A stretch of 32,000 nucleotides of DNA from Sphingorhabdus sp. (GTDB lineage Bacteria; Pseudomonadota; Alphaproteobacteria; Sphingomonadales; Sphingomonadaceae): positions 1-32,000 of the forward strand of contig NZ_JBIIBA010000014.1 in assembly GCF_044239665.1 (NCBI RefSeq). Reading direction: 5' to 3'. A program made the translations under genes and the position numbers. Under the pieces are notes generated by a model. The model did no database searches. It was not told where the DNA came from and saw only the letters and a program-made list of their open reading frames with translations. Position 1 is the first letter of the stretch; each line of letters opens with the position of its first letter. Of this stretch, positions 1 through 31,333 are shown piece after piece.

Positions 1-147
1 GAGCGCGGTGTACGTTTTGGTCGCAAGCCAACGACAGAAGCGCAGATAGCAAAAATTCAATGGATGAAGCGAAATGGCTCATCAATCCGCGCTATCTGTA
101 AAGAGGTGAAAGTCAGTCCGAATACGGTTTATGCGATGTTGCAATGA
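1..147 (+). CDS. Serine recombinase (resolvase/invertase family), C-terminal HTH fragment; 5' end lies outside the window
   Basis: Frame 1 reads ERGVRFGRKPTTEAQIAKIQWMKRNGSSIRAICKEVKVSPNTVYAMLQ*. The GRKP linker followed by a short helix-turn-helix tail is the typical C-terminus of Tn3/Hin-type resolvases. Confidence 0.6.
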   Translation, partial: ERGVRFGRKPTTEAQIAKIQWMKRNGSSIRAICKEVKVSPNTVYAMLQ

Positions 148-315
148 AACGGGATTCTGGATGGATATGTCTCAGACTATTTTCTGAGAATCATTCAGAT
201 TTAATCAGTCTCCTTGATTATGAGTTCTACGAACTCATGCGATTTCGGGTTTCTTCGTAACCCTCATCGCTTTGTTTTTTTATATTTGTTGGTTGGTACA
301 TTTCGTTAGATTGCT

Positions 316-349
316 GCCACAGTGAGGCTTACGCTTCACTGTGGCTTTT
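316..349 (+). terminator. Rho-independent terminator-like hairpin downstream of the recombinase gene
   Basis: gccacagtga (316-325) pairs with tcactgtggc (336-345) and is followed by ttttgcacttttcg. Confidence 0.5.
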
Positions 350-726
350 GCACTTTTCGTTGAGTCGTTTAAGCCAATGATTGCACACAACCACGCAGTT
401 CAAATGAACTGAATGGGAGATAGGGTTACGCTGTTACCTTTATGTGTGGTGAGTTGTTCGCAACGCAGCGTCTTGGGAACCAATCATTTACCCCTAAGAC
501 ACATACAAGTTACCGCTTTCGCAGTCTCATCTTTCTTGATCCATCGCATAATATTTTTACAAGCCAGTTGCGACTTTGCTTGTTGTATTGCGTGTCTGTG
601 GTCACGCTTACTGGGCTGCAAGTTCTGTTGGCGACAGCTAGGCTGGCAAACTCAATGCGACGATAATGCCCTATGATAGAACATAGAAACGTGAATAGGT
701 TACAGACACGTTCTTTCTGCTCCACA

Positions 727-777
727 GATAAATACTAGTCAGATTGCGCTTACATTCTGACGATATGAGTATTTATC
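727..777. promoter_or_regulatory. Inverted repeat GATAAATACT-N31-AGTATTTATC bracketing the region just upstream of gene A1 (putative operator)
   Basis: 10-bp arms at 727-736 and 768-777. An inner gtcaga/tctgac inverted repeat is also present. The same half-site recurs at 7709-7718, 7744-7753 and 4967-4976. Confidence 0.45.
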
Positions 778-794
778 ACGGAGTAAGGAAAACT

Positions 795-1100
795 ATGAAA
801 AAAGACACGATTTTAGAAGTTTTTGGGTATCTTAAATCTAAGCAGATTGTTTCTGGCGAGAGCGAATTTTCTGAGCATTGGCTTGGTTGTTCAGAAGGCT
901 ACATGCGTAAATTACGACATAAGAAAACAGAACCAAGTTTGGGCACAATCGCAATATGTGCGAGTAGATTACAGAACGCTGCTGAGCAGTTGAGAACATT
1001 GCCGCGCTATCAGCCATTGGCAAAACAGCTTACATCAATGAGTATCAAATGTCGTTCGTTGGTTGATGCAGACAGCGTCGAGTTTGATCTGAGTAATTAA
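795..1100 (+). CDS. Island backbone protein A1 (101 aa), putative XRE/Cro-like HTH regulator
   Basis: ATG at 795 is preceded by aaggaaa. The segment FSEHWLGCSEGYMRKLRHKKTEPSLGTIAICASRL fits the XRE-type HTH pattern (LGxSxxYxxxxxxGxxxPSLxxxxxxAxxL). The paralog at 7771-8076 is 82% identical (18/101 differences by hand count). Confidence 0.55.
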   Translation: MKKDTILEVFGYLKSKQIVSGESEFSEHWLGCSEGYMRKLRHKKTEPSLGTIAICASRLQNAAEQLRTLPRYQPLAKQLTSMSIKCRSLVDADSVEFDLSN

Positions 1101-1159
1101 AACCAACTTGGAAAAAGGTTCCTTTTGCTGCACGGTTTGGATCTGTCACATCAAGACGG

Positions 1160-1795
1160 TTGGGTTTCTCATTGCACAAGTCAGACGAAGCACGGTTGGC
1201 AAAGCTTCACGATTTATTGGATCGATTGAGGCGTGGCGAAATCGTGCAAAATCGTCAGCTTCAGACTTGGCTTGGTGAGCAAGGTTATAAGGAATACGAG
1301 GATAGTTGGTCGAACACATTAGATCAGCGCAACTTGCTTAGTAGAAAATCTGGCGCAGTTATCGAGTATGAGGAGCTGCTGAAGAAGGCAATACTGCTCT
1401 ACAATCGCGGTGAAACTGCAAGTCAGCGAGGAGTGCGATCAGCACGACAGCTACACGCAAAAGCACAAACGGCTTTCGAACGGGCACTGCTGTATCTTGA
1501 AGAGCAACTAAGCATCGATCCGTCGTTGCAAATCTGGCTCGACAGACAATGTGATTTCACTGCTAGTAACTACCCCAGTCTTGACCCATTTAGCGTTCCA
1601 CGAGCTATTACTAGTCGCAGCTTAGACAATCAGAGCGGTCCAATTTCAGAAAAGATTGATAGCAAAAGACAGTGCAAAATTCGTGCGGTGGAAGCGGTGA
1701 TTGAGCAAATTAAGTGTCCAGAAGAGCGTCTAACAAATGAAGACATAGCTGCGAAACTTCGAGCACTAACGGCAACGATGGGGAAAAGGGCGTGA
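1160..1795 (+). CDS. Hypothetical protein B (211 aa), predicted mostly helical, no recognisable domain
   Basis: Long open frame in roughly 45% GC DNA. The only possible start is TTG at 1160, since there is no in-frame ATG or GTG upstream and the in-frame stop is at 1094. Its stop overlaps the start of the next ORF. Confidence 0.5.
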   Translation: MGFSLHKSDEARLAKLHDLLDRLRRGEIVQNRQLQTWLGEQGYKEYEDSWSNTLDQRNLLSRKSGAVIEYEELLKKAILLYNRGETASQRGVRSARQLHAKAQTAFERALLYLEEQLSIDPSLQIWLDRQCDFTASNYPSLDPFSVPRAITSRSLDNQSGPISEKIDSKRQCKIRAVEAVIEQIKCPEERLTNEDIAAKLRALTATMGKRA

Positions 1796-2274
1796 CTAAA
1801 GAACGGGAAAAACTAGGAAATGATCTTGCAATAGCTATCGCTCAATCGTCTGGGATTGGTGACAATCTCTTATGCATAGCTGAACATGTCGTCACTGAAA
1901 TCGAGTATCGGCATGGTATCGATGACGATCTAGGAAACGTATATCACGACTTTAAGATAATTTCCGACGGTTTACTCATAAGAACGACAGATGGATACGA
2001 CTACAAAGATGCTGATGCATTTATCCAAAACCGCATAAAAAGCAGAGACGTAAAGGCATCCGCTTGTCTAAAAAATGGAAGAGAACTCCAGATAGAATTT
2101 CTACTTACGTTTCTTTTCGGCGCCCATCTCGTCGATGAAGTCGAGATATATGTATGTATCAACAACAGAGACATTAGAGGGAATGATGTTACGTTAAGTG
2201 GGGAAATATACAGCGAGGATGTTTCTGAATCTGACCTGAAAGGCGCGTTATTGTGGCTAACGCTTCAGCGTTGA
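1792..2274 (+). CDS. Hypothetical acidic protein C (160 aa), no recognisable domain
   Basis: GTG start at 1792 overlaps the TGA of ORF B (GTGA) and is preceded by ggggaaaaggg. There is no internal Met. The ORF ends 3 nt before the 693-bp repeat begins. Confidence 0.5.
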   Translation: MTKEREKLGNDLAIAIAQSSGIGDNLLCIAEHVVTEIEYRHGIDDDLGNVYHDFKIISDGLLIRTTDGYDYKDADAFIQNRIKSRDVKASACLKNGRELQIEFLLTFLFGAHLVDEVEIYVCINNRDIRGNDVTLSGEIYSEDVSESDLKGALLWLTLQR

Positions 2275-2276
2275 TT

Positions 2277-2969
2277 GGCTAGATTTCGGTAGGAATATCA
2301 AAGCGAAGGATTCACATTGAGTTCTCGAAAAAGGAGAATGCAATGTCGCTAATATCATCGCTGAAGCTGATCGAGTTTCGACCAGAAACAGCACAAGGGC
2401 GCATCTTCGTGCGTCGTCGCAAACTGGCAGATAAGATCGATCAGCAGATCAAGCTTGCTACAGACCCAGCGTATGCACCAAGCAAGTTTGTTACTGTCAC
2501 TGACGAAAGCGGCAATCAGCATCGTCGTGAAGTAGCAAAGCGCATCAAGCGATGGTGGGTCGTGAACGCTGACGATACAGTTCAACTAACAGTGCGTTAT
2601 GGCAGCAAACCAATTGAGCTTGCGAAGGGCAAGAACGCTATTCAATGCGCTAATGCTTCAGAGGTCAGCACGGTTCTTTCAACGGTAAAGGAAGCTGTTT
2701 TGAACGGCGAACTTGATACTGTTTTGAACAGCGTCACTGGCGTTAGTTCGAAAGCGAAATAATCACGAGAAAGGCACTGGAAAGAGACGATTTGCGTAAG
2801 TATGATGTTTACACATTGTGCATCTACGACACGAGATTTCAATTACATACCTAAGTGATTGATTTAATGGAATAAATCTTAAATCGCATTAGTTACACAA
2901 AAATAAAAATTGGAGCTAACTAATTGATTTATATATGTTTTATAGCAGTGAATCGTTGAGTGGGAGTAG
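2277..2969. repeat. Direct repeat copy 1 (693 bp; partner at 8208-8900)
   Basis: Hand alignment at a constant offset of 5931 bp gives no indels and about 26 mismatches. The last 28 bp (atagcagtgaatcgttgagtgggagtag) are identical. Confidence 0.9.
2343..2762 (+). CDS. Island backbone protein D1 (139 aa), conserved hypothetical
   Basis: ATG is preceded by aaaggaga. It has a near-identical paralog at 8274-8693 (4/139 aa differences). The basic central region KRIKRWW has no motif I can name with confidence. Confidence 0.7.
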   Translation: MSLISSLKLIEFRPETAQGRIFVRRRKLADKIDQQIKLATDPAYAPSKFVTVTDESGNQHRREVAKRIKRWWVVNADDTVQLTVRYGSKPIELAKGKNAIQCANASEVSTVLSTVKEAVLNGELDTVLNSVTGVSSKAK

Positions 2970-3153
2970 AATGCGTTACTAAGTAACTGATATTGTTTGT
3001 TTATTTAGTTACACAAAACATTCACGACGCACAAAAAATCGTTTGTTTCCAGTTCCAGCAAGCTTATTGTTGCACAGCTACTTACACATTCTTGTCACTA
3101 CTCTAAATCGTAGGCGACATTGCTGTTTGGGTGCGCTTGAGGGGAAATAGACA
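2763..3153. other. attP-like hybrid junction: AT-rich arms with repeated TTAGTTACACAAAA / TTACACA motifs around the repeat end at 2969
   Basis: The 14-mer TTAGTTACACAAAA sits at 2889-2902 and 3005-3018. TTACACA also occurs at 2809-2815 and 3082-3088, all in the same orientation. A perfect 13-bp palindrome, gttactaagtaac, lies at 2975-2987. The integrase gene starts at 3154. Confidence 0.45.
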
Positions 3154-4395
3154 ATGTCACATCGAGTTAAGGCTGATGACGGTCGTATCTGGCTGTTTGA
3201 TAAGGTGCTTATTGAGCAGCGAGGTGTTTACTGGCACTTCAGAATGTGGCTTGATGGTGAGAACAAATATGTTCGTGAGAGCTTAAAAACTCGCGATTTA
3301 GAGACAGCAAAAAAACGAGCAGAAGATCGTTACATCGAGCTTCGTTCAGATCAGAAGTCTGGCAAACGCTACTTCTCGATTACAGCAGAAGAAGGGGTGA
3401 ATCTCTATCTCGCTGACAAACAAAAGCTGGTCGAACTCAAGACAATCACAAAGGGGCGTCACGGCACAATATCGACGCATCTTGGTCACTGGCTGGACTA
3501 TATCAAGCGTGACACAAAGCTGAAGGAACTGGAGCGAAACGCTGCTGAAGGCTACTTCGCTTATCGTATCAAAAACGCAAAGCACGGCATCGCACATACA
3601 ACGCTTGCAAACGAGCAAGGCACTATCAACGCAATGATGGCGTATCTTTTTCGTGCAAAACAGAGTGTCGTCGAAGCGTTCGATTTCCCCAAGCTTAGTA
3701 AGTATGAAATCGACAACGAAGCAATTCGACGAGCTACGCTTACTAACGACGAGTATAATGCATTGACCAAAGCAATGCGTTCATATGTCGCTCGTAAGGC
3801 AAACAAGCTCGACGATGATGAACATATGATGCGTGAGTTGGCGAGGCACTATGTTTTGATTGCAGCAAATGCGGGGCTGAGAACGGGTGAGCAGCAGCAA
3901 CTTCGCTGGTGTGATGTGAAGATGAAAAAGCACGAGCTTGGCGCAGCGATGCAGACGAAGCTGCTTGCCGAAATCTATGTGCGCAAAGAGACGAGTAAGG
4001 TTCGTAAGGATCGTAAATTATACTGTCGTGGGGGTACTTACTTCGAACGCTGGAAAGAGCTTTCCAGGCATACGAGCAGCACTGATTTGATATTCAGTCT
4101 CGACGGCAAAACACGCATTTCGAATCGTGCAATTCTCTATCATTTCCATCGTATGGTGAAGCTTGCAGGCATTGTAGATCACGAAGCACGAGGTATCGTT
4201 CCATACAGCTTACGGCACTTTATGATCACGCAAAGGGTGCTGAGTGGTTTATCGTTTCAGCAAGTCGCAGAGATGTGTGGCACGAGCGACACTGAGATCA
4301 GAAAGACATACTATCACTTGATAGATGATCGTCGTTTGGCGAACGCTGTGGCTGACTTTAGGCGTGACAAAGATGGTCGAATAATTCCCATCTAA
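3154..4395 (+). CDS. int: Tyrosine recombinase / phage-type integrase (413 aa)
   Basis: RBS gagggg lies 9 nt upstream. Catalytic-domain landmarks are AGLRTGE (Arg I), YSLRHFMIT (box II Arg) and EIRKTYYH (Tyr region). The long N-terminal domain is typical of arm-binding integrases. Confidence 0.85.
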   Translation: MSHRVKADDGRIWLFDKVLIEQRGVYWHFRMWLDGENKYVRESLKTRDLETAKKRAEDRYIELRSDQKSGKRYFSITAEEGVNLYLADKQKLVELKTITKGRHGTISTHLGHWLDYIKRDTKLKELERNAAEGYFAYRIKNAKHGIAHTTLANEQGTINAMMAYLFRAKQSVVEAFDFPKLSKYEIDNEAIRRATLTNDEYNALTKAMRSYVARKANKLDDDEHMMRELARHYVLIAANAGLRTGEQQQLRWCDVKMKKHELGAAMQTKLLAEIYVRKETSKVRKDRKLYCRGGTYFERWKELSRHTSSTDLIFSLDGKTRISNRAILYHFHRMVKLAGIVDHEARGIVPYSLRHFMITQRVLSGLSFQQVAEMCGTSDTEIRKTYYHLIDDRRLANAVADFRRDKDGRIIPI

Positions 4396-4543
4396 CTTAA
4401 AACATTTAAGTTAGCTCCGCTCGAAGCTACGAAAGCGTTTCTGGATCAGGTACTTTTGGAGTGGCGGGGCATCTTCAGCAATGATAGCTCCACGCAAATC
4501 ATCACATTAACAGCAGCGCATCATTCGTAAGTTAGGAAGTCTA

Positions 4544-4933
4544 ATGTTCAAAGAAGCTACTTTAATTCTTGCTGCCATTAGTGCGCCTGCGCCTGTCTCG
4601 CCTGAGCTGACGGTCGCTGATGGTTGGCTTTCGTTGCTTGATGCTAACAGCTGGTCTGCAAGCTGGAATGATACTGGAAAACTGTTTCGTTCGCAGCTGA
4701 CGCAGGAGCAGTGGGTAAAAACAGTTCAATCAGTTAGGGAGCCTTTAGGCACAGTTGTGTCGCGGGTCGTGAACGGTTCGAGTAAATCGAAATCACTGCC
4801 TGGTGCGCCTGATGGAGAGTATGAGATTTTACAGTATCGTACAGTTTTTTCGAAAAAGGCTGACACGATTGAAACAGTCATTCTTGCTCGTGAAGACGAC
4901 AAATGGAAGATAGTCGGTTACTTCATCCGTTAG
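4544..4933 (+). CDS. DUF4019-like small exported protein (129 aa)
   Basis: RBS aggaag. The N-terminus is hydrophobic (LILAAISAPAP). The C-terminal LPGAPDGEYEILQYRTVF...WKIVGYFI matches my memory of the DUF4019 family pattern. Confidence 0.5.
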   Translation: MFKEATLILAAISAPAPVSPELTVADGWLSLLDANSWSASWNDTGKLFRSQLTQEQWVKTVQSVREPLGTVVSRVVNGSSKSKSLPGAPDGEYEILQYRTVFSKKADTIETVILAREDDKWKIVGYFIR

Positions 4934-4997
4934 ATTAGCAATCGAGTAAGCCTGCAGCTCCCGAGTGATAAATACACTTGAAAGCAGGGTGTATGGG

Positions 4998-5426
4998 ATG
5001 AACGCACGAGAAGAATTGAAACGCTGGATTGCTATGGTGATCGAGCTATCATCAGAAGAAGAAAGCAAGACGATCAAGCAGGACATTGACCTGTTTCTGT
5101 CAGTCGCAGGGGAGTTGTCAGGGAAATTGGCTGATAGAAACACTGCGCTTGCGAAACAGTGTCGCTCAAGCAGCAAATCAAAGCCACCGAAGCCTGCTCC
5201 TCAGAAAGCCCAGAAGCAACCTAAGCCAGAGCCAAGCACTGCTGATACCCCACAATCCCAAAACGATTCAGAGGACCGTTCACAGGAGCGATCAGGACAA
5301 TCGTCGCAGAAACAACAAGCACCGACATCTCCCACTCATCAGCAACGAGCATTGCGTGGGTATGTCTATGGGGCACAAAATGATGAGGTTGCATTTCGCA
5401 AAGCTGCGCAGGCTATAACACGATGA
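4998..5426 (+). CDS. Hypothetical protein with a helical N-terminus and a long Pro/Gln/Ser/Lys-rich low-complexity linker (142 aa from ATG 4998)
   Basis: The open frame spans 4965-5426. ATG at 4998 follows agggtg. The stop overlaps the next start (ATGA at 5423-5426). A GATAAATACA half-site lies at 4967-4976. Confidence 0.5.
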   Translation: MNAREELKRWIAMVIELSSEEESKTIKQDIDLFLSVAGELSGKLADRNTALAKQCRSSSKSKPPKPAPQKAQKQPKPEPSTADTPQSQNDSEDRSQERSGQSSQKQQAPTSPTHQQRALRGYVYGAQNDEVAFRKAAQAITR

Positions 5427-5767
5427 ACGACAGGCTTATCCAAAGCCAGAAGCGGCTGCACGACAGTCTGTTTGAACTTTACATTGATGGTGGGTTGGAA
5501 CTGTTTCAGGCTGGCACTCGTGGCTTAAAGCGTGAGTTAATTATAAGGCTTGAGACAAGCGCACTCACACCAGAGAAGGGTGAAATAATTCACTACTATG
5601 CAATCAATCGTTGGGATGAAAACGATGAGTTTGACGAGTGGGCAAAGCCGTCAATGGCTCTGTCAGCGGAAGCTGAGCGCATTTTAGGAGTGACGAATGA
5701 GCAGCTTGCTCATTGTCGTGCAAGTGATTATGCACTCGACGATTTTTTCCGTTTCCTGCAGTTCTGA
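5423..5767 (+). CDS. Truncated, degenerate DnaQ-like (DEDD) exonuclease N-terminal fragment (114 aa)
   Basis: LIIRLETSALTPEKGEIIHYYAI...AERILGVTNEQL...FFRFLQF follows the ExoI-region pattern (vlDxETTGLxPxxxxIIEigav...vHGITxexL...Fxxfl). The first acidic residue is Arg (RLE instead of DxE). The ORF stops before the ExoII and ExoIII motifs. Confidence 0.45.
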   Translation: MNDRLIQSQKRLHDSLFELYIDGGLELFQAGTRGLKRELIIRLETSALTPEKGEIIHYYAINRWDENDEFDEWAKPSMALSAEAERILGVTNEQLAHCRASDYALDDFFRFLQF

Positions 5768-5774
5768 GAAGATT

Positions 5775-6269
5775 GTGATCGTCACTGAGCGCCTCAAGTT
5801 ACGCCTGCCAAAACTCTCCGATTTGGAAGACATTCACGAAATATTCTGTGACGATGAGGTAATGACTTACTGGTCAAATGGAGCTCATCAAAGCATATCT
5901 GAAACAAGAACTTGGCTTACGCCACTTCTTGATTACAATCCTGAAAGCCAATTTGACTTTTTCATTGATTTTCAAGGAAAAATAGTTGGTAAACTTGGTT
6001 TCTGAAAATTACCAGAAGTCGGTTTTATTCTTAATAGATCTTATTGGGGAATAGGTATTGCTTCAGAGGCAATGAGAGGACTAATAAGTTATGTCAGAGA
6101 ATATAATATTTCTGATCATTTATTTGCTGATGTAGACCCACGCAATTTAAGATCCATCAATCTATTGAACAAGTTTGGTTTTGAAAATATTGGTTTTGAA
6201 AGACAGACATTTGAAACTCATATAGGCTGGTGCGATAGCATTTATTACAAGTTAGAGTTAAAAGACTGA
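5775..6269 (+). pseudogene. GNAT (RimJ/RimL-like) N-acetyltransferase interrupted by a single in-frame TGA at 6003-6005
   Basis: ORFs 5697-6005 and 6072-6269 share one frame. Read-through gives ...GKIVGKLGF*KLPEVGFILNRSYWGIGIASEAMRGL..., which includes the GNAT motif A (RxxGxG/A). TERLKLRLPKLSDLEDIHEIFCDDEV is a typical RimJ/L N-terminus. GTG at 5775 is a plausible start. The segment is about 35% GC by eye. Confidence 0.7.
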
Positions 6270-6286
6270 ATTGTTATTTGTGTTGT

Positions 6287-6853
6287 TCAAATCACATTAA
6301 CAGCATTTGCCAATTGCTCATCACTGACCCAGCAATATCCAGCAGTAGTAGCAATGTTAGCGTGACCCATAGCTTGCTGAATTGTCGCCATCCCAATGCC
6401 AGCAGCGTTTAAGCGTGTAGCAAATGTCCTTCTGCCTGAATGACTGCTCGTTTTGATACCAGCGGCTGCGTAGATTGCTTTGAAGCGCAAGCTGAGACTG
6501 ATGTTGCTAAAATGGTTGCCAGTCCGTGTTGAGCGAATGAATGCTTTGCTCTCATCAAGCTGGCTAATCTGAGCGAGATATTGATTTAGGATTTTGCGAA
6601 GTTCGTCTGAGATGAAAACCCTGCGTGAGCGATTGCCTTTCGTTTGATGTTTGCTGAGATTGATGACTTCTACTGCTCGTCTATCAATCCCGCGAACATC
6701 AGAAATCTTCAAAGCCGCAATCTCTCCAATGCGCATCCCAGCTAAGATACTAAGCGACAAAGCCGTTCTATCTCTGAGACCGTTATTCCCTGTGTCAGCG
6801 ATACGCATCACTCGTTTGATTTCGTCTTTAGTCAGAACCTTTGCTTTTGCCAT
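6287..6853 (-). CDS. Minimal tyrosine recombinase, catalytic domain only (188 aa from MAKAK), FimB/FimE-sized
   Basis: AGMRIGE (Arg I), SSHSGRRTFATRL (HxxR) and GHANIATTAGY (His/Tyr) are present. There is no N-terminal core-binding or arm domain. The start at 6853 is chosen over the ORF-track start at 6931. Confidence 0.8.
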   Translation of the reverse strand: MAKAKVLTKDEIKRVMRIADTGNNGLRDRTALSLSILAGMRIGEIAALKISDVRGIDRRAVEVINLSKHQTKGNRSRRVFISDELRKILNQYLAQISQLDESKAFIRSTRTGNHFSNISLSLRFKAIYAAAGIKTSSHSGRRTFATRLNAAGIGMATIQQAMGHANIATTAGYCWVSDEQLANAVNVI

Positions 6854-7093
6854 TTTGCTTGTCTCACATAAACTTTTCCGATGAGAGATTCTTAAATTAA
6901 TCAGACATTTGATCCTACCGATTTCCTCCATCAGTCGTTTTGTTGTTTCCCAATGACCTATGTCGTTTTCACAAACTTTTGATTCTTTGTTAATGTCTTT
7001 GCATTTTGGGTATTATGAAGACTTGCGCTGAAATCACTCAGCACATTGCCTTGTCCATAAGACGCACGACTTCACCGCAGCATAGCTGTCCTG

Positions 7094-7726
7094 TTAGTTC
7101 GAGTTGCGCCTAATGTATCGCTGCTCAGCCCTTGCAAGATGCTGATCGAATGCGATCGAGGCATCGTTAATGTGCTGGAAGCGATCTGCTGCTGATCGTA
7201 GGTCGATCAACGCAGTGTCACGCATCTTGGGTTGATACTGATCGAGATGCGTCAGCTTCGCATTGAAGCCGTTCATCTCACCATCGTGATCTTCGTGAAG
7301 CAGATACCAGGAAGCTCGTTGCTTGCTGAAAACGGGCAGTATCTCGTTCTGCTCAGCTACCGCTGCGCCCGCACCCTCCATACCAGCCCAGAGCGCATTA
7401 AGCAGAACGCAGAACTCTCCCGTGTCACCCAGAGATCGAGCAAGGAAGTGCGAATGTATGTTGTCCCCGTTCCTGCCGCTGTGCGTGTAAACAAAACGCT
7501 GAACTCGATTCTGCCTACCCTTTGACTGCCCGTAACAGATACGATCCAACTTGCTCCAGAAGTGCGACCATTGTCGCTGTGCTTCTTCAATCCCAATTTT
7601 GTGTCCAACAGCGAAGTTCAGTGTCCCATAAACATTCCAATCATACGACGAAGCCCACTTCGCCCAGTTCAGTCTCACTAACGATTTTGCGACCATTCTC
7701 ATTTCCCAGATAAATACAGTGAGCAA
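7094..7726 (-). CDS. Hypothetical protein with HUH-type rolling-circle Rep-like motif order (about 200-210 aa; start uncertain between 7726, 7702 and 7696)
   Basis: The motif order is YGTLNF (motif I-like), about 55 aa, NIHSHFLA (HxH, motif II-like), about 50 aa, then SWYLLHEDH (a possible Tyr motif). It is divergent from gene A2 across a palindromic region. Confidence 0.4.
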   Translation of the reverse strand: MLTVFIWEMRMVAKSLVRLNWAKWASSYDWNVYGTLNFAVGHKIGIEEAQRQWSHFWSKLDRICYGQSKGRQNRVQRFVYTHSGRNGDNIHSHFLARSLGDTGEFCVLLNALWAGMEGAGAAVAEQNEILPVFSKQRASWYLLHEDHDGEMNGFNAKLTHLDQYQPKMRDTALIDLRSAADRFQHINDASIAFDQHLARAEQRYIRRNSN

Positions 7727-7753
7727 GTCACTTGCTACTGATGTGTATTTATC
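7709..7753. promoter_or_regulatory. Inverted repeat GATAAATACA-N25-TGTATTTATC with a nested near-perfect palindrome, lying between the divergent Rep-like and A2 genes
   Basis: Arms lie at 7709-7718 and 7744-7753. The inner sequence cagtgagcaagt c acttgctactg has one mismatch. Confidence 0.45.
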
Positions 7754-7770
7754 ACTGGGAGATCGAAACG

Positions 7771-8076
7771 ATGAGAAAAGATATTATTTATGAAGTGCTT
7801 GGGTTTCTAAAAGACAAAGGAATTGCTGCGACTGAAAGCGAGTTCAGCGAACATTGGTTAGGTTGTTCGGAAGGGTATTTGCGTAAGCTGCGTCATCAAA
7901 AAACAGAACCAAGTCTGGGCACGATAGCAATTTGTGCCAGTCGATTAATGTGCGCCGCTGAGCAGTTGAAAACATTGCCGCGTTATCAGCCATTAGCAAA
8001 ACAGCTTACATCTATGAGTATCAGATGTCGTTCGTTGGTTGATGCTGACAGTGTTGAGTTCGATCTGGCTGGGTGA
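7771..8076 (+). CDS. Island backbone protein A2 (101 aa), paralog of A1, putative XRE/Cro-like HTH regulator
   Basis: ATG at 7771 follows gggaga. It shares 82% aa identity with A1, and the C-terminal 60 aa are nearly identical. Confidence 0.55.
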   Translation: MRKDIIYEVLGFLKDKGIAATESEFSEHWLGCSEGYLRKLRHQKTEPSLGTIAICASRLMCAAEQLKTLPRYQPLAKQLTSMSIRCRSLVDADSVEFDLAG

Positions 8077-8126
8077 GTTTTCTGTTTTAGGAAAGCGGAA
8101 CAGAAAGCTGAAATGACAAATGGTGC

Positions 8127-8174
8127 GCTGTCGGTTTTCCCGACAACGCATTGATTGTCGGGAAAACCGACAGC
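8127..8174. repeat. Perfect 20-bp stem / 8-nt loop hairpin in the empty A-D slot
   Basis: gctgtcggttttcccgacaa (8127-8146), loop cgcattga, then ttgtcgggaaaaccgacagc (8155-8174). A weaker 7-bp hairpin lies at 8080-8105. Confidence 0.9.
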
Positions 8175-8207
8175 TTACTTTAAACTTTAAAGCTTGAGTT
8201 TTTGCGA

Positions 8208-8900
8208 GGCTACATTTCGGTAGGAATATCAAAATGAAGGATTCACATTGAGTTCTCGAAAAAGGAGAATGCAATGTCGCTAATATCATCGCTGAAGCTG
8301 ATCGAGTTTCGACCAGAAACAGCACAAGGGCGCATCTTCGTGCGTCGTCGTAAACTGGCAGATAAGATCGATCAGCAGATCAAGCTTGCTACAGACCCAG
8401 CGTATGCACCAAGCAAGTTTGTTACTGTCACTGACGAAAGCGGCAATCAGCATCGTCGTGAGGTAGCGAAACGCATCAAGCGTTGGTGGGTCGTGAACGC
8501 TGACGATACAGTGCAACTAACAGTGCGTTATGGCAGCAAACCAATCGAGCTTGCGAAGGGCAAGAACGCTATTCAATGCACTAATGCGTCAGAGGTCAGC
8601 ACGGTTCTTTCAACGGTCAAGGAAGCTGTTTTGAACGGCGAACTTGATACTGCTTTGAGCAGTGTCACTGGCGTTGGTTCGAAAGCGAAATAATCACGAG
8701 AAAGGCACTGGAAAGAGACGGTTTGCGCAAGTATGATGTTTACACATTGTGCATCTACGACACGAGATTTCAATTACATACATAAGTAATTGATTTATTG
8801 GAATAAATCTTAAATCGCATTAGTTACACAAAACTAAAAATTGGAGTTAACTAATTGATTTATATATATTTCATAGCAGTGAATCGTTGAGTGGGAGTAG
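8208..8900. repeat. Direct repeat copy 2 (693 bp; partner at 2277-2969). Its right end coincides with the island/chromosome boundary
   Basis: Same alignment as copy 1. The sequence after 8900 (gcgttcacccgcaatgacc...) is GC-rich chromosome. Confidence 0.9.
8274..8693 (+). CDS. Island backbone protein D2 (139 aa), paralog of D1
   Basis: 97% aa identity to D1, with the same RBS and context. Confidence 0.7.
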   Translation: MSLISSLKLIEFRPETAQGRIFVRRRKLADKIDQQIKLATDPAYAPSKFVTVTDESGNQHRREVAKRIKRWWVVNADDTVQLTVRYGSKPIELAKGKNAIQCTNASEVSTVLSTVKEAVLNGELDTALSSVTGVGSKAK

Positions 8901-8913
8901 GCGTTCACCCGCA

Positions 8914-9123
8914 ATGACCGCCGCGCTATCGCCTGCGCAGATTAGCGAGATCGTCGAAATGGCGCTGTCGGATCATATCAGCTTCACGCAGATTTCGGCG
9001 CAGCACGGGGTCACGCCTGACGAGATTAAAGTCATCATGCGCACCCAGTTAAAGCCCGGAAGCTATCGCGCATGGCGCAAGCGTGTGCGCGATTTCGGCG
9101 ACCGGCGGGCGCATTATAAATGA
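8914..9123 (+). CDS. DUF2805 (TIGR03643-like) family small protein (69 aa)
   Basis: MTAALSPAQISEIVEMALSDHISFTQI...YRAWRKRV matches my memory of this family. The ORF-track start at 8887 (TTG) lies inside island DNA, so ATG 8914 is preferred. Confidence 0.6.
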   Translation: MTAALSPAQISEIVEMALSDHISFTQISAQHGVTPDEIKVIMRTQLKPGSYRAWRKRVRDFGDRRAHYK

Positions 9124-9151
9124 TATTCATGGCAGATAACGGACCCAGCAT

Positions 9152-9505
9152 ATGACCCTAACTCTCTACGGCATTCCCAATTGCGACACCGTCAAAAAAG
9201 CGCGGAAATATTTGGATGCGCGCGGCGTCAGCTTTGCCTTTCATGATTATAAAAAGGCAGGGGTGACGCAAGAACATCTGGCGCGCTGGGCCAGCCAAGT
9301 CGGCTGGGAAAAGCTGCTGAACAAGGCGGGCACGACGTTTAAGAAGCTGCCCGATGCGGATAAGGCCGACATAGATGCGACCAAGGCGATTGCGTTGATG
9401 GTTGCCAACCCGTCCATGATCAAACGGCCAGTGGTTGAAGGCGGCAAGGCTTTGCTCGTCGGGTTTAAGGAATCCGAATGGGATGCGCTTTTGTCGCAGA
9501 ATTGA
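9152..9505 (+). CDS. ArsC/Spx-family protein (YffB-like)
   Basis: LYGIPNCDTVKKARKYL at the N-terminus and SMIKRPVV near the C-terminus; 117 aa. Confidence 0.8.
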   Translation: MTLTLYGIPNCDTVKKARKYLDARGVSFAFHDYKKAGVTQEHLARWASQVGWEKLLNKAGTTFKKLPDADKADIDATKAIALMVANPSMIKRPVVEGGKALLVGFKESEWDALLSQN

Positions 9506-9530
9506 AATGTCGCGCAGGCATGACAGCAGG

Positions 9531-10598
9531 ATGAAATTCTTACATATCCTCTTGATCGCCACCCTGTCATTGTCGCCCTTCTCCATTTCGGAAAGCCACG
9601 CCATGGAACAACCGCTTGAAGGCAAAGTCATCGTCATCGCCCATCGCGGCGCATCGGGCGAGCGGCCCGAGCATACGTTGGCAAGCTACCGCCTCGCGAT
9701 TGAACAAGGCGCCGATTATATTGAGCCGGACTTGGTGCTCACCAAGGATGGCGTTCTGGTCGCGCGGCATGAGAATGAGATTTCGGAAACCACTAACGTC
9801 GCGGACAAGGCCGAATTTGCCGACCGCAAGATGACCAAGGTCATCGATGGCCAGAAAATGACAGGCTGGTTTACCGAAGACTTCGCCCTCGCCGAATTGA
9901 AGACCCTGCGCGCGAAAGAACGCCTACCGCAATTGCGCAAGGCAAATATGGCCTATGACGGGCAGTTTGAGATACCGACCTTTGACGAGATCCTCGCTTT
10001 GGCCAAAGAGGCAAGCAAGACGACGGGTCGGACGATAGGCGTCTATCCCGAAACCAAGCACCCAAGCTATTTCACCGCGATTGGTCTGCCGCATGAAGCG
10101 CCGTTGCTGGCCGCGCTGACCAAATATGGTCATGTCGACAAAAGCGCGCCGGTGTTCATCCAATCGTTCGAGGTCGAAAATCTGAAAGCCTTGCGGTCCA
10201 AAACGAAATTGCGCCTGATCCAGTTGATGGCGGACACAGGCAGCCCGCCCGACCGCAGCGATTTGACCTATGCCGCAATGGCAACGGCAGAGGGCCTAAA
10301 GGCCGTGGCGAGCTATGCCGATGGCATTGGCCCCAATAAGGCACTCATCATCCCGCGTACTTTGCTGGGCAATCTGGGCGATCCGACGACCCTTGTCGCG
10401 GACGCACATAAACTGGGTCTTGCGGTTCACCCGTGGACGTTTCGCCGCGAAAATTACTTCCTGCCCCTCGCGCAAAAATCCGGCGTTGATCCGCGTGGGA
10501 CAGGTGACTTGAACGCAGAGATAAAAGCCTTCTTGGCTACCGGCGTCGACGGCATTTTCAGCGACAATGTGACCGAAGCGGTGGCGGCGCGCCAATAA
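9531..10598 (+). CDS. glpQ: Periplasmic glycerophosphodiester phosphodiesterase
   Basis: Signal peptide MKFLHILLIATLSLSPFSISESHA. VIAHRGASGERPEHTL...YIEPDLVLTKDGVLVARHENE is the GDPD signature. An alternative start lies at 9507. Confidence 0.8.
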   Translation: MKFLHILLIATLSLSPFSISESHAMEQPLEGKVIVIAHRGASGERPEHTLASYRLAIEQGADYIEPDLVLTKDGVLVARHENEISETTNVADKAEFADRKMTKVIDGQKMTGWFTEDFALAELKTLRAKERLPQLRKANMAYDGQFEIPTFDEILALAKEASKTTGRTIGVYPETKHPSYFTAIGLPHEAPLLAALTKYGHVDKSAPVFIQSFEVENLKALRSKTKLRLIQLMADTGSPPDRSDLTYAAMATAEGLKAVASYADGIGPNKALIIPRTLLGNLGDPTTLVADAHKLGLAVHPWTFRRENYFLPLAQKSGVDPRGTGDLNAEIKAFLATGVDGIFSDNVTEAVAARQ

Positions 10599-10653: not shown

Positions 10654-11520
10654 ATGTCTACACATTCAAAAACGCTCACTTTCGATACATCCACCAGTCG
10701 CGCGAACCCGACGCCTTCGCCGATGAAGCGGCTGACCGTGCCGCGCATTCGGCAGCAAAAGGGTAAGGAACCGCTGGTGATGCTGACGGCCTATACCGTC
10801 CGCATGGCGCAGTTGATGGACCCGCATTGCGACATGCTGCTCGTCGGTGATTCGCTGGGGCAAGTGATTTACGGCCTGCCGCACACCGTGGCGGTGACGA
10901 TGGAAATGATGGCGGCGCATGGCGCGGCGGTGGTGCGCGGCAGCTATCACGCCGCCGTCATCGTCGATATGCCCTTTGGCTCCTATGAAGCATCGCCCGA
11001 ACAAGCATTTGTCAACGCATCGCGACTGTTGAAAGAGACCGGCGCGGCGGCGGTGAAGCTGGAAGGCGGCAAGGTGCTCGCGCCCACGGTGGAGTTCCTG
11101 ACCTCACGCGGCATTCCGGTGATGGCGCATGTCGGATTAACGCCGCAGGCGGTGAACATTCTGGGCGGCTATGGCGTGCGCGGCAAAAGCCCAGAAGAAG
11201 CCAAGTCGATCGTCGATGATGCGATGTCCATGTCCGACGCCGGGGCATTTGCCATGGTGATTGAAGGCGTACTTGAACATATCGCCATTGAAATTACGCA
11301 AAAAGTTGCCTGCCCAACCATTGGCATTGGCGCGTCGGCGCAATGCGACGGGCAAGTGTTGGTTGCCGAAGACATGCTGGGCTTGTTCGACCGCGTTCCC
11401 AAATTCGTCAAGAAATTCGGTGATATGGGTGTCGGCGTTGAGGACGCTGTGCGCGCTTATGCCGCTGGCGTGCGTGACCGCAGCTTCCCCGGACCCGACC
11501 AGCTATATCAGCCTGTATAA
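10654..11520 (+). CDS. panB: 3-methyl-2-oxobutanoate hydroxymethyltransferase
   Basis: LVMLTAYT...MLLVGDSLG...VDMPFGSY...AVKLEGG are canonical PanB motifs. Confidence 0.9.
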   Translation: MSTHSKTLTFDTSTSRANPTPSPMKRLTVPRIRQQKGKEPLVMLTAYTVRMAQLMDPHCDMLLVGDSLGQVIYGLPHTVAVTMEMMAAHGAAVVRGSYHAAVIVDMPFGSYEASPEQAFVNASRLLKETGAAAVKLEGGKVLAPTVEFLTSRGIPVMAHVGLTPQAVNILGGYGVRGKSPEEAKSIVDDAMSMSDAGAFAMVIEGVLEHIAIEITQKVACPTIGIGASAQCDGQVLVAEDMLGLFDRVPKFVKKFGDMGVGVEDAVRAYAAGVRDRSFPGPDQLYQPV

Positions 11521-29777: not shown

Positions 29778-30539
29778 ATGTCATTATTCGATATGACCGG
29801 TAAGGTCGCCATCATCACAGGTTCGTCGCGTGGCATTGGCCAAGCGATTGCCGAAGAAATGGCCGGGCAAGGCGCAAAGGTTGCGATTTCCAGTCGAAAT
29901 ATCGAGGATTGCGAAGCAGTGGCCGCTGGCATCAATGCCAAGCATCCGGGCGCTGCGATTGCCGTGGCCTCAACCCTCTCGTCCAAAGGGTCCTTGCAAA
30001 ACCTTGTCGACGAAACCCGCAAGGCATTTGGCAAAGTCGACGTTCTGGTCTGCAATGCGGCGTCGAACCCGCATTATGGCCCCATGGCGACGATCACGGA
30101 CGAACAACTGCGCAAGGCGCTTGATCACAATATCGTGTCGCAACATTGGCTGATCCAGATGGTCGTGCCCGAAATGATCGAACGCAAATCGGGCTCTATC
30201 GTGATCGTGTCATCCATTGCCGGCTTGCGCGGCTCGCCGATCTTGGGCGCGTATGCGATCACCAAGGCGGCGGATATCCAGATGACCAAAAACCTCGCCC
30301 GCGAATATGGCCCGTATAATGTGCGGATCAATTCGATCGCGCCGGGACTGGTGAAAACCGATTTTGCCAAGGCCCTATGGGAGAACCCCGAAAATCTGAA
30401 GGCGTCTACCTCTGGCGCGGCATTGGGCCGCATCGGCGAGCCGCGCGAGATCGCCGGCGCTGCGGTGTATTTGGCATCCGACGCATCAAGCTTTATGACA
30501 GGGCAGACAATTGTCGTTGATGGAGGCGTCGTCGTATGA
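29778..30539 (+). CDS. SDR-family oxidoreductase
   Basis: [12 protein letters not shown] and YAITK. ATG 29778 lies 7 nt after gagagg; alternative starts are at 29772 and 29763. Confidence 0.85.
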
Positions 30540-31333
30540 GTGGAGCATTAGCAGGCAAAGTCGCCATCATCACGGGCGCGGGTTCGGGCATTGGCCGGGC
30601 CTCCGCCATCCGCTTTGCGGCCGAGGGTGCGAAGGTCGTTTTGGGCGACATGGCGGCTTCCGTCCATGACACCGCTGCGATGATCGGCGATGCGGCGACC
30701 GCCGTGCAAATGGACGCAGGCGATGAGGCGGATGTCACAGCTTTAGTCGCCAAGGCCATCGCGCTGCACGGACATCTCGACATCGCCTTTGCCAATGCGG
30801 GCATTTCCGGCGGCATGGAGGGTATTTTCGACAATACGGTCGAGAACTTCACCAGCGTTCTGCGCGTCAACCTGATTGGTCCGTGGCTGATGGTTAAGCA
30901 TGCCGGAAAGGTCATGGCCGATGCAGGCAATGGCGGGTCGATCATCTTGACAGCAAGCGTCGCGGGCATTCGTTCGGGCGCAGGCGGACCACCTTATTCG
31001 GCGTCGAAGGCTGGCGTCATCAATCTGGCGCAGGTCAGCGCGCAGCAATTGTCGGGCACCAATGTCCGCTGCAACGCGATTTGCCCGGGCCTCACTGAAA
31101 CCGGCATGACGAAGCCGACTTTCGATTATGCCCGCGAAAAGGGCGTGACCGAAAAAATCGGCCGCCTAAACCCCTTGCGCAGAGGTGCGCAGCCAGAGGA
31201 GCTTGCTAATGTCGCCTTGTTCCTTGCCAGCGACCAAGCCTCTTATGTCAACGGCCAAGCCATTGCCGTGGACGGCGGGCTTTCCAGTTCGCACCCCGTA
31301 ACGCGCCAATTAACAGGACAAACCGCCGTATGA
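30536..31333 (+). CDS. SDR-family oxidoreductase
   Basis: [11 protein letters not shown] and YSASK. ATGA overlap with the upstream SDR gene. Confidence 0.85.

Follow-up and report, generated by a model that had tools for sequence, protein, structure and literature searches.

The stretch of DNA analysed here (the window) comprises 32,000 nucleotides of a Sphingorhabdus sp. genome (contig NZ_JBIIBA010000014.1, positions 1 to 32,000) and opens with an island of low guanine-plus-cytosine (GC) content, from position 1 to approximately 8900, at 42-48% GC versus approximately 57% for the host. The island consists of two elements placed in tandem, head to tail, beside an integration site at the guaA gene; element 2 is complete and occupies 2970-8900. 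At the right end of both elements a gene A is followed by a slot, a gene D and an arm, and the slot holds two genes, B and C, in element 1 and no gene in element 2. The interval from A to D is probably the right-hand variable region of a family of small integrative elements, composed of interchangeable modules that would be shuffled by homologous exchange. Such elements would measure approximately 6-10 kb and reside in Alphaproteobacteria, mainly Sphingomonadales. Their backbone would run from an inward-facing integrase on the left through a first variable region, a short recombinase, a putative HUH protein and A to the second variable region, which is the interval in question, and then to D with the right arm. 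Within this second region each module would have its own short leader, with minus-strand cargo beside A followed by an optional gene E, an optional B and an optional C.

Flank A is a DUF6626 protein. Its copy in element 1 (A1, 795-1100, plus strand, 101 amino acids (aa)) matches Pfam PF20331 with an E-value of 4.5e-22 and 78.8 bits against the Pfam cutoff of 27.3. Flank D is a DUF6641 protein with 406 homologues; D1 (2343-2762, plus strand, 139 aa, isoelectric point (pI) 9.8) matches PF20346 with an E-value of 4.1e-16 and 59.7 bits against a cutoff of 27. A literature search for DUF6641 and DUF6626 returned no papers, and no relative of D was found in IMG/VR, the phage collection or the plasmid collection. 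The sequence-only reading had both elements ending in A, slot, D and arm, with 82% identity in A and 97% in D, and the same figures were obtained upon recomputation: A1 and A2 (7771-8076, plus strand, the left flank of the empty slot) share 83 of 101 residues (82%), and D1 and D2 (8274-8693) share 135 of 139 (97%). The A protein of one relative, L019, is 99% identical to A1. At the nucleotide level 765-1091 matches 7741-8067 at 79.8% identity, and a 693-bp repeat (2277-2969 versus 8208-8900) matches at 96.2%. The right boundary of the slot is as sharp as had been claimed, with the stop codon of C at 2272-2274 and the repeat beginning at 2277, 3 nt after the stop. Both the repeat and the right-end module open with the D leader (2277-2342, plus strand; GGTAGGAAT ... 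AAGGAGAATGCA-ATG). The two overlapping open reading frames (ORFs) described for the filled slot are B and C, with a 4-nt overlap, and the slot described as empty has hairpins and no plus-strand ORF, either in 8077-8207 or up to the start of D (8273).

Relatives were collected through an alignment of D homologues, which gave 18 genomic and 39 metagenomic loci, and contigs with B, C and D homologues were added. Genes A, B, C, D and E, the replication-protein (Rep) genes and the recombinases were mapped on these loci by tblastn and jackhmmer. W1 and W2 denote window elements 1 and 2 below, and L with a number denotes a collected relative locus. Among loci with at least 3 kb of upstream sequence, approximately two thirds have A upstream of D on the same strand. 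The interval between the two ranges from 197 to 8,995 bp and takes approximately 14 states in approximately 21 non-redundant loci. No gene occupies it in W2, L003 and L029; B is the sole occupant in L004, L019 and L022/23, B and C share it in window element 1, and L062 has a C homologue alone. Two minus-strand ORFs with E and B are found in L001, and three minus-strand ORFs with E, B and C in L002, L059 and an 85-kb contig from the same host locus. E occurs with various minus-strand genes in L008, L010, L030/L055, L034 and L035/36/49. A large pair of proteins without family assignment (578-633 aa and 466-473 aa) occupies L005 and L067/68, the larger one also being present in L035/36/49. L017, a Roseovarius genome, carries E, a type I restriction system interrupted by an insertion sequence (IS) and a 172-aa protein. 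Collecting homologues of A and D and cataloguing what lies between them was the check proposed in the sequence-only reading, and the contents do swap among relatives as it expected. The variable slot is real, since relatives do not always carry the B-C pair (empty, B-only, C-only and other states occur) and A and D are linked in most loci in which linkage can be seen. Occupancy differs even among elements whose D and arm modules are 95-97% identical, which show five states: B and C in W1, empty in W2 and L003, B in L019, two ORFs with E and B in L001, and three ORFs with E, B and C in L002.

The limits of shared sequence indicate how occupancy changes. Window positions 444-1706 match L019, an element of the A-B-D type, at 96.5% and then diverge, and positions 1178-2965 match L002 and L058, of the E-B-C-D type, at 96.2%, the two matches overlapping inside B. 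Relative to the L019-type A-B-D arrangement, the C module (1707-2275, plus strand), made up of an alternative 3' end of B and the whole of C, is extra. Element 1 is a visible recombinant of two relatives with a crossover inside B, its left side (A with the 5' part of B) being of the L019 type and its right side (the 3' part of B, C and D) of the L002 type. The D leader, D and arm are 95-97% identical in W1, W2, L001, L002, L003, L019, L020 and L058-L060 regardless of what precedes them, and the leader is kept upstream of D after B, after C or after the spacer (W1, W2, L001-L004, L019, L022, L029). The leader motif of the B module (1107-1137, plus strand; CTTGGAAAAAGGTTCCTTTTGCTGCACGGTT) is likewise the same after A (W1, L019, L004, L022) or after E (L001, L002, L058). 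Local gene conversion was considered as the cause of the 96% repeat in the window and rejected, because the same module is 95-97% identical in at least eight other genomes or metagenomes.

The two flanks have discordant histories. L001 and L010 are 95% identical in A and 65% in D, W1 and L001 are 49% identical in A and 97% in D, and over 153 pairs the Spearman correlation of A with D identity is 0.39. A breakpoint at the start of A is evident from the conserved non-coding stretch upstream of A1 (278-783), which is 94% identical in nucleotides to L005 5471-5978 though the adjoining A proteins are only 47% identical. Breakpoints in general coincide with gene boundaries or fall inside shared genes. 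Their positions, the conserved module leaders and the tandem co-residence of elements point to homologous recombination between related elements as the process that changes slot occupancy. Crossovers would fall within shared modules, namely the 3' end of A, B, and the D leader with D and the arm, and tandem or co-resident copies at one attachment site would make such recombination easier.

The empty slot of element 2 can be read as the minimal, maintained state of the region, with a hairpin spacer between A and D. The spacer (8077-8207, plus strand) has a 12-bp hairpin at 8077-8108 and a 20-bp hairpin at 8127-8174, followed by CTTACTTTAAACTTTAAAGCTTGAG, and the whole distance from A2 to D2 (8077-8273) is 197 bp. 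Its RNA fold energy is -70.7 kcal/mol (z = -7.0 versus shuffles) and it was called terminator-like; an Rfam search of 1-9600 gave no match. The same spacer as in W2 is present in L003, and a diverged version in L029. Given that the 197-bp spacer architecture is kept in L029 despite a D only 62% identical, the empty state would be a maintained configuration and not a recent deletion scar. A 110-aa antisense ORF (7993-8325) across the spacer, the end of A and the start of D was treated as spurious, since it overlaps both genes and its element 1 counterpart is 45 aa.

Hairpins dominate the empty slot and a short second tyrosine recombinase is encoded close by, which would suit an integron-like cassette site run by that recombinase with the hairpins as recombination sites; inversions of the middle of L063 and of E in L041, L043, L047 and L048 would suit it as well. 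However, the 20-bp hairpin is confined to W2 and L003 and missing from all filled slots, and the L029 hairpin differs. B, C and the other modules are not bordered by repeats, and the L063 inversion has no inverted repeats at its end points. Integron integrase models gave 17-22 bits versus cutoffs of 265-435, the 22 bits standing against the cutoff of 435. The junctions of element 1, furthermore, lie inside homologous coding sequence. A cassette site is very improbable on these grounds.

Exchange of modules by homologous recombination does not make all parts of the slot alike. E (257-274 aa, with a YWWEYLRR-like motif; e.g. L002 2573-3397, L008 9097-9870 and L034 1941-2753, with approximately 25 further loci) has no family match and is the commonest left neighbour of D, in approximately 17 loci and in more than 20 when E-B(-C)-D arrangements are counted. 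B is the second commonest. It forms 96 homologue clusters and lies directly upstream of D or of C-D in approximately nine loci, and it is preceded by E in L001, L002, L021, L058, L059 and L063. In L064 and L065, in whose available sequence neither A nor D was detected, it accompanies E and the short recombinase. This regularity would fit a backbone role, in which B, either alone or together with C, has a regulatory or maintenance function in a right-end E-B-D operon, element 2 is reduced, possibly defective and dependent on functions in trans, and the slot is a site of decay. In line with such a role, both window elements are without E, and element 2 has the remnant of a split acetyltransferase gene (5697-6269). 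Against it, most loci with D are without B, and B and C each occur without the other (B in L001, L004, L019, L021, L022 and L063; C in L062). Element 1 is a recombinant and not a deletion product, and random deletion would not be expected to leave three independent loci, including the one with the diverged D, with a conserved structured spacer of equal length. The backbone account is possible but we consider it doubtful.

Under the preferred reading of interchangeable modules, B is an optional, semi-conserved element gene rather than free cargo; our best guess is that it is an accessory or regulatory gene at the level of the element, which it would serve. The behaviour expected of true cargo is limited to C and to the minus-strand genes located between A and E. 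The position of C shifts, after B in the window and directly after A in L062 and L063, and in L063 it stands apart from E-B-D. A is also an exchangeable module and not a fixed anchor, given that its identity to A1 ranges from 35 to 99%, several of these loci having D at a steady 96-97%. The picture of a plain cargo bay held between two immovable anchors is, in short, too simple. The other variable region of the element, located between the integrase and the short recombinase, is where the type II restriction system of L063 is found. In that locus (Sphingomonas lacunae CP053015) the element middle, at 2391-9046, is inverted relative to the integrase and E-B-D, and the inverted part takes in, from one end to the other, p153 and exo, the type II restriction system, the short recombinase, A and the C homologue.

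Slot gene B (1160-1795, plus strand, 211 aa) may start at the TTG at 1172 and is followed by C (1792-2274, plus strand), which encodes an acidic alpha/beta protein of 160 aa. A, B, C and D are taken as real genes because A and D exceed the Pfam thresholds, B and C have homologues and the model of C is confident. The four genes of element 1 would form one rightward transcription unit, judging from their shared strand, gaps of 60-70 nt or the 4-nt overlap, and the absence of a convincing terminator between them. Counts of promoters and terminators were at or below shuffle expectation, and a "promoter" before D was discounted, as it overlaps the D ribosome-binding site. The AlphaFold2 model of B (predicted local distance difference test (pLDDT) score 83) is all-helical: its long helices form a bundle, and a conserved extended segment (VPRxITSRSL) and two helices at the C-terminus complete it. 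In the Protein Data Bank (PDB) it has neither a fold match, at E-values up to 0.001, nor a sequence match. C is rare, with three relatives among 5.8 billion clusters and five among 1.84 billion representatives, and its homologues diverge down to 29% identity. Its AlphaFold2 model, built from seven sequences, has a pLDDT of 89.6 and a predicted template-modelling (TM) score of 0.84 and shows two N-terminal helices, a five-stranded sheet and a C-terminal helix. Searches of this fold in the PDB and BFVD, a viral structure library, yielded no match at E-values up to 0.001, the best E-values being 0.13-0.35 with TM scores below 0.3; the top matches are helix-grip-like, weak and not significant.

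Database searches of the slot proteins were equally bare. Neither B nor C matches PADLOC, Pfam, PHROG or NCBIfam, and A, B, C and D gave no match in PADLOC-DB v2 at E-values up to 0.1. PDB sequence and profile searches with A, B, C, D and Rep210, the putative HUH protein of element 2, found nothing credible. When A to E and 26 slot proteins were compared with Pfam, PHROG, NCBIfam and PADLOC, DUF6626 and DUF6641 were the only matches apart from the L017 restriction genes and IS transposase. The large pair of L005 and L067 is among the proteins without Pfam, PADLOC, PHROG or NCBIfam match. It is a minus-strand module recurring in distantly related elements (L005 6284-9365; L067 6767-9880), the larger protein being found at L035 7074-8900 and L049 3227-5128 and split into 453 and 123 aa in L067, and it is a candidate for a new system.

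The arrangement of B and C, on one strand with the 4-nt overlap (GTGA) and a good ribosome-binding site for C, might suggest a two-gene conflict module carried as cargo, be it a toxin-antitoxin pair, an abortive-infection system or a new anti-phage system. Their charges are opposite (pI 8.7 for B, 4.65 for C), and related elements carry restriction and helicase-nuclease genes. A toxin-antitoxin reading is argued against by the lack of an obligate pair: B stands alone in most loci, C is alone in L062 and C is apart from B in L063. Neither protein belongs to a known toxin or antitoxin family in Pfam, NCBIfam or PADLOC, and no enzymatic motif was recognised among the long helices of B. We regard a B-C conflict module as quite unlikely.

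C on its own, along with other small acidic slot proteins, might instead be a counter-defence protein, an anti-restriction factor or another inhibitor of immunity, that helps the element to become established in a new host. It is small and acidic (net charge -12), as are several unrelated slot proteins: 141 aa with pI 4.5 in L001, 127 aa with pI 4.5 in L002, and 85 aa with pI 4.05 and 172 aa with pI 4.75 in L017. It also belongs to a rare, fast-evolving family with a confident, unmatched fold, and it lies directly behind A in L062 and L063. Acidity is, however, weak evidence, and C has no similarity to ArdA, Ocr, Acr, the viral structure library or PHROGs. As a specific role for C this is unlikely. 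More broadly, our best guess is that C and other slot genes may be conflict-related cargo, in defence or counter-defence, the likeliest theme in view of the restriction and helicase-nuclease genes that the family carries elsewhere.

Those genes comprise the type II restriction system of L063, a type IIG-like gene in L067 (1-3312), a Type ISP restriction-modification enzyme of 1636 aa beside B in L064 (1103-6013) and a 1676-aa Hhe/PDC-S37-like helicase-nuclease in L065 (239-5269); the genes of L064, L065 and L067 adjoin B or the short recombinase. Defence genes are thus counted in the slot of L017 and elsewhere in the element in four relatives, a small sample that comes without a background rate. 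The sequence-only reading had likened the slot to defence and accessory hotspots of phage satellites and integrative islands. Its core, conserved flanks around swappable content, stands; the defence and satellite part of the analogy finds weak support. The proposed scan for known defence or toxin-antitoxin genes turned up the restriction system of L017, and B and C match none. Satellite and phage hallmarks (psu, delta, sid, alpA, primase, packaging, capsid redirection) were not found when ten element proteins were compared with PHROG and Pfam, the matches being integrases and two PHROGs without assigned function only. A more ambitious proposal, that the interval is a reservoir of new conflict systems, among them C, the large pair and the small acidic proteins, and that the elements form a new class of mini-islands that replicate by rolling circle, accumulate in tandem and shuffle such systems by homologous exchange, is rather doubtful.

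The arm noted by the first reading is present and is identified here as a right attachment arm that ends in a copy of the end of guaA. In element 1 the arm (2763-2969) contains TTAGTTACACAAAA at 2889, CTAAsTrATTGATTTA twice and the core TTGAGTGGGAGTAG (2956-2969). In the window, ATCGTTGAGTGGGAGTAG, a copy of the last guaA codons, closes the right end of both elements (2952-2969 and 8883-8900). The guaA gene itself lies to the left of the window, and its junction was seen in L063 and L022. At the left junction of these two loci guaA ends in ...PPGTIEWE* with GAGTGGGAGTAG exactly at the integrase-side junction, and GAGTGGGAGTGA recurs after D. The core GAGTGGGAGT is present at both ends in L063 (870-890 and approximately 11270-11285) and L022 (left site at approximately 225-245), the guaA ends reading IVEWE* or TIEWE*, and at both right ends in the window. 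The guaA-end core at the integrase junction of L063 and L022, recurring after D, places the integration site of the family at the guaA 3' end. Within the window core lies GAGTGGGA, the site of GIsul2, which was defined experimentally (PMC9376610). Positions 2956-2969 represent the right attachment site (attR) of element 1 fused to the left attachment site (attL) of element 2, and 8887-8900 the final attR; arm-type repeats TTAGTTACACAAAA flank the internal junction (2889, 3005). Insertion into a TIGR03643 gene was considered and rejected, the core being the guaA 3' end. The 78-aa TIGR03643 ORF from the TTG at 8887 starts inside the core, an artefact of ORF listing, and the true start is probably the ATG at 8915.

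Mobility is indicated by several relatives. The two ends of L014, a 7510-bp contig labelled SAR324, overlap by 43 bp, from which a circular molecule is deduced; it carries the integrase, the short recombinase, a Rep-like gene, E and D. D reads across the attachment site into the integrase in L004 (Novosphingobium acidiphilum, 6970 bp) and in a 4089-bp ENA contig, and the same order, D, attachment site, integrase, is seen in the window. Excised or tandem forms are consequently common, as shown by circular L014 and the contigs running from D into the integrase. The family has the mobility expected of an accessory hotspot, with an integrase, core repeats at the ends and circular or tandem forms.

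Element 2 displays the whole backbone. Its left arm (2970-3153), with the second TTAGTTACACAAAA at 3005, is collinear with the post-guaA sequence in L063 and L022. The tyrosine integrase (3154-4395, plus strand; PF00589, E-value 1.6e-11; phrog_1 integrase, E-value 2.5e-22) is 78-89% identical to the integrases of L004, L022 and L063. Other genes are a DUF4019 gene, a 153-aa gene and a small DnaQ-like gene. The acetyltransferase remnant comprises two adjoining ORFs of 102 aa and 65 aa, which look like a RimJ-type acetyltransferase gene broken in two by a frameshift or stop; the second of them alone has a match, a weak one in NCBIfam (E-value 2e-4). The short second tyrosine recombinase (6287-6931, minus strand, 214 aa; PF00589, E-value 1.8e-32) is kept beside Rep and A in L001, L003, L004, L010, L022 and L066. 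Rep210 (7094-7726, minus strand, 210 aa), a putative HUH-type replication or nicking protein, is divergent from A2, as its relatives in L001, L003, L010, L014 and L017 are from A, the gap between the two genes measuring only approximately 45-75 bp. Six aligned relatives share an R-x-R-x-V...H-x-H motif followed downstream by a tyrosine; there is no Pfam, NCBIfam, PHROG, PADLOC or PDB sequence match, and by its motifs Rep210 may resemble HUH rolling-circle Rep or relaxase proteins. The right-end module (8208-8900, plus strand) consists of the D leader, D2, the right arm and the core TTGAGTGGGAGTAG (8887-8900), which meets host DNA.

What is visible of element 1 begins with the 3' end of a serine recombinase (resolvase) gene (1-146, plus strand) cut by the window start. 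In L005, L008 and L067 a resolvase gene lies upstream of A, and the C-terminus of its product is 94-96% identical to this fragment; PF00239 is present in the L067 copy. The conserved stretch that follows (278-783, approximately 500 bp) has no credible ORF and several short hairpins, e.g. at 316-345, and may serve the resolvase-type backbone as an origin, a resolution site or a regulatory region. To the right of the island the host genes are ArsC, GDPD, panB, TPR_21, PQQ, Der, ferritin, DUF418, Coq4 and PurL, syntenic with freshwater Sphingomonadaceae contigs. A 43-nt direct repeat in this part (29799-29841 and 30554-30596, 74% identity) codes for 11 residues that form the cofactor-binding motif in each of two adjacent short-chain dehydrogenase paralogues and is no mobile-element feature.

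The A-to-D interval resembles several known systems in part. In temperate phage mosaics and the HS1-5 hotspots of SXT/R391, homologous recombination at conserved gene boundaries shuffles modules between fixed backbone genes; the present elements differ from both in being far smaller and without conjugation or virion genes. Hotspots of P4-like satellites and P2-like prophages (Rousset et al. 2022, PMC9122126; PMC13586616) likewise occupy a short interval between conserved element genes, with content that differs between near-identical elements and is exchanged as modules, and some of their occupants are restriction systems. Unlike those hosts of hotspots, the window elements have no P4 or P2 hallmark gene, the integrase alone being recognisable, and D is absent from IMG/VR and the phage collection. 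Slot occupants here are mostly proteins without known function, with one of approximately 14 states a known defence system, and E and B are semi-conserved.

GIsul2 and other elements at the guaA 3' end (PMC9376610; PMC5704250) share with the present family the target, the GAGTGGGA core and an integrase at the guaA side. A resolvase gene, as in element 1, L005 and L067, and several attachment-site copies that recombine into tandem or composite structures are further points in common. In contrast, the element 2 integrase has no close relative in the plasmid collection and only a 28% match in Rhizobium, GIsul2 itself being compared by description. Searches of the window with Pfam and NCBIfam did not find alpA, repA/C, transfer, toxin-antitoxin, arsenic or sul2 genes; the hosts here are Alphaproteobacteria, and the backbone is made up of DUF6626, DUF6641 and unnamed proteins. 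Tycheposons (Hackl et al., bioRxiv 10.1101/2020.12.28.424599) are also small, with an inward-facing tyrosine integrase at one end, a small replication module, cargo mostly of unknown function, tandem junctions at a shared attachment site and modular swapping. They differ in hosts and in target, which is here the end of a protein gene (guaA), with no tRNA in the window. By these comparisons the elements and their slot genes do not qualify as phage satellites, integrons, toxin-antitoxin pairs or known defence systems, nor, by the tRNA site, as tycheposons. The interval is an ordinary kind of accessory hotspot in an element family for which no literature was found.

Several points weigh against reading the interval as a region of freely exchanged cargo modules. 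Element 1 is truncated by the window start, with its integrase and left end out of view. The sample of approximately 68 loci consists mostly of short metagenomic contigs gathered through D, to which elements without D are invisible. Exchange by homologous recombination is deduced from mosaic identity. Part of the slot is optional backbone, B and E being too widespread and too regularly placed. A recognised defence system is found in the slot of L017 only, one of approximately 14 states, and a conflict role for C is an extrapolation, given that the remaining recognised systems belong to the left variable region or to settings that lack A and D. Beyond the two DUF assignments, all sequence and structure searches with A to E were negative.

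Hotspots bounded by conserved genes are among the most productive sources of new anti-phage and counter-defence systems. To our knowledge nearly all mapped hotspots are in elements of Enterobacteria, Vibrio or Pseudomonas. If the slot genes prove to be element housekeeping, the value of the present region is limited to the annotation of two DUF families. The slot is useful for finding new genes and not surprising in principle, and it yields a short list of candidates, C, B and the pair of 578 and 466 aa. Element 1 offers a clean natural example of module exchange, with a crossover that appears to lie inside B. DUF6626, DUF6641, the E and B families and the guaA-end core are now searchable anchors for these small elements, which are widespread in Alphaproteobacteria of freshwater and marine habitats and encode hardly any characterised protein.

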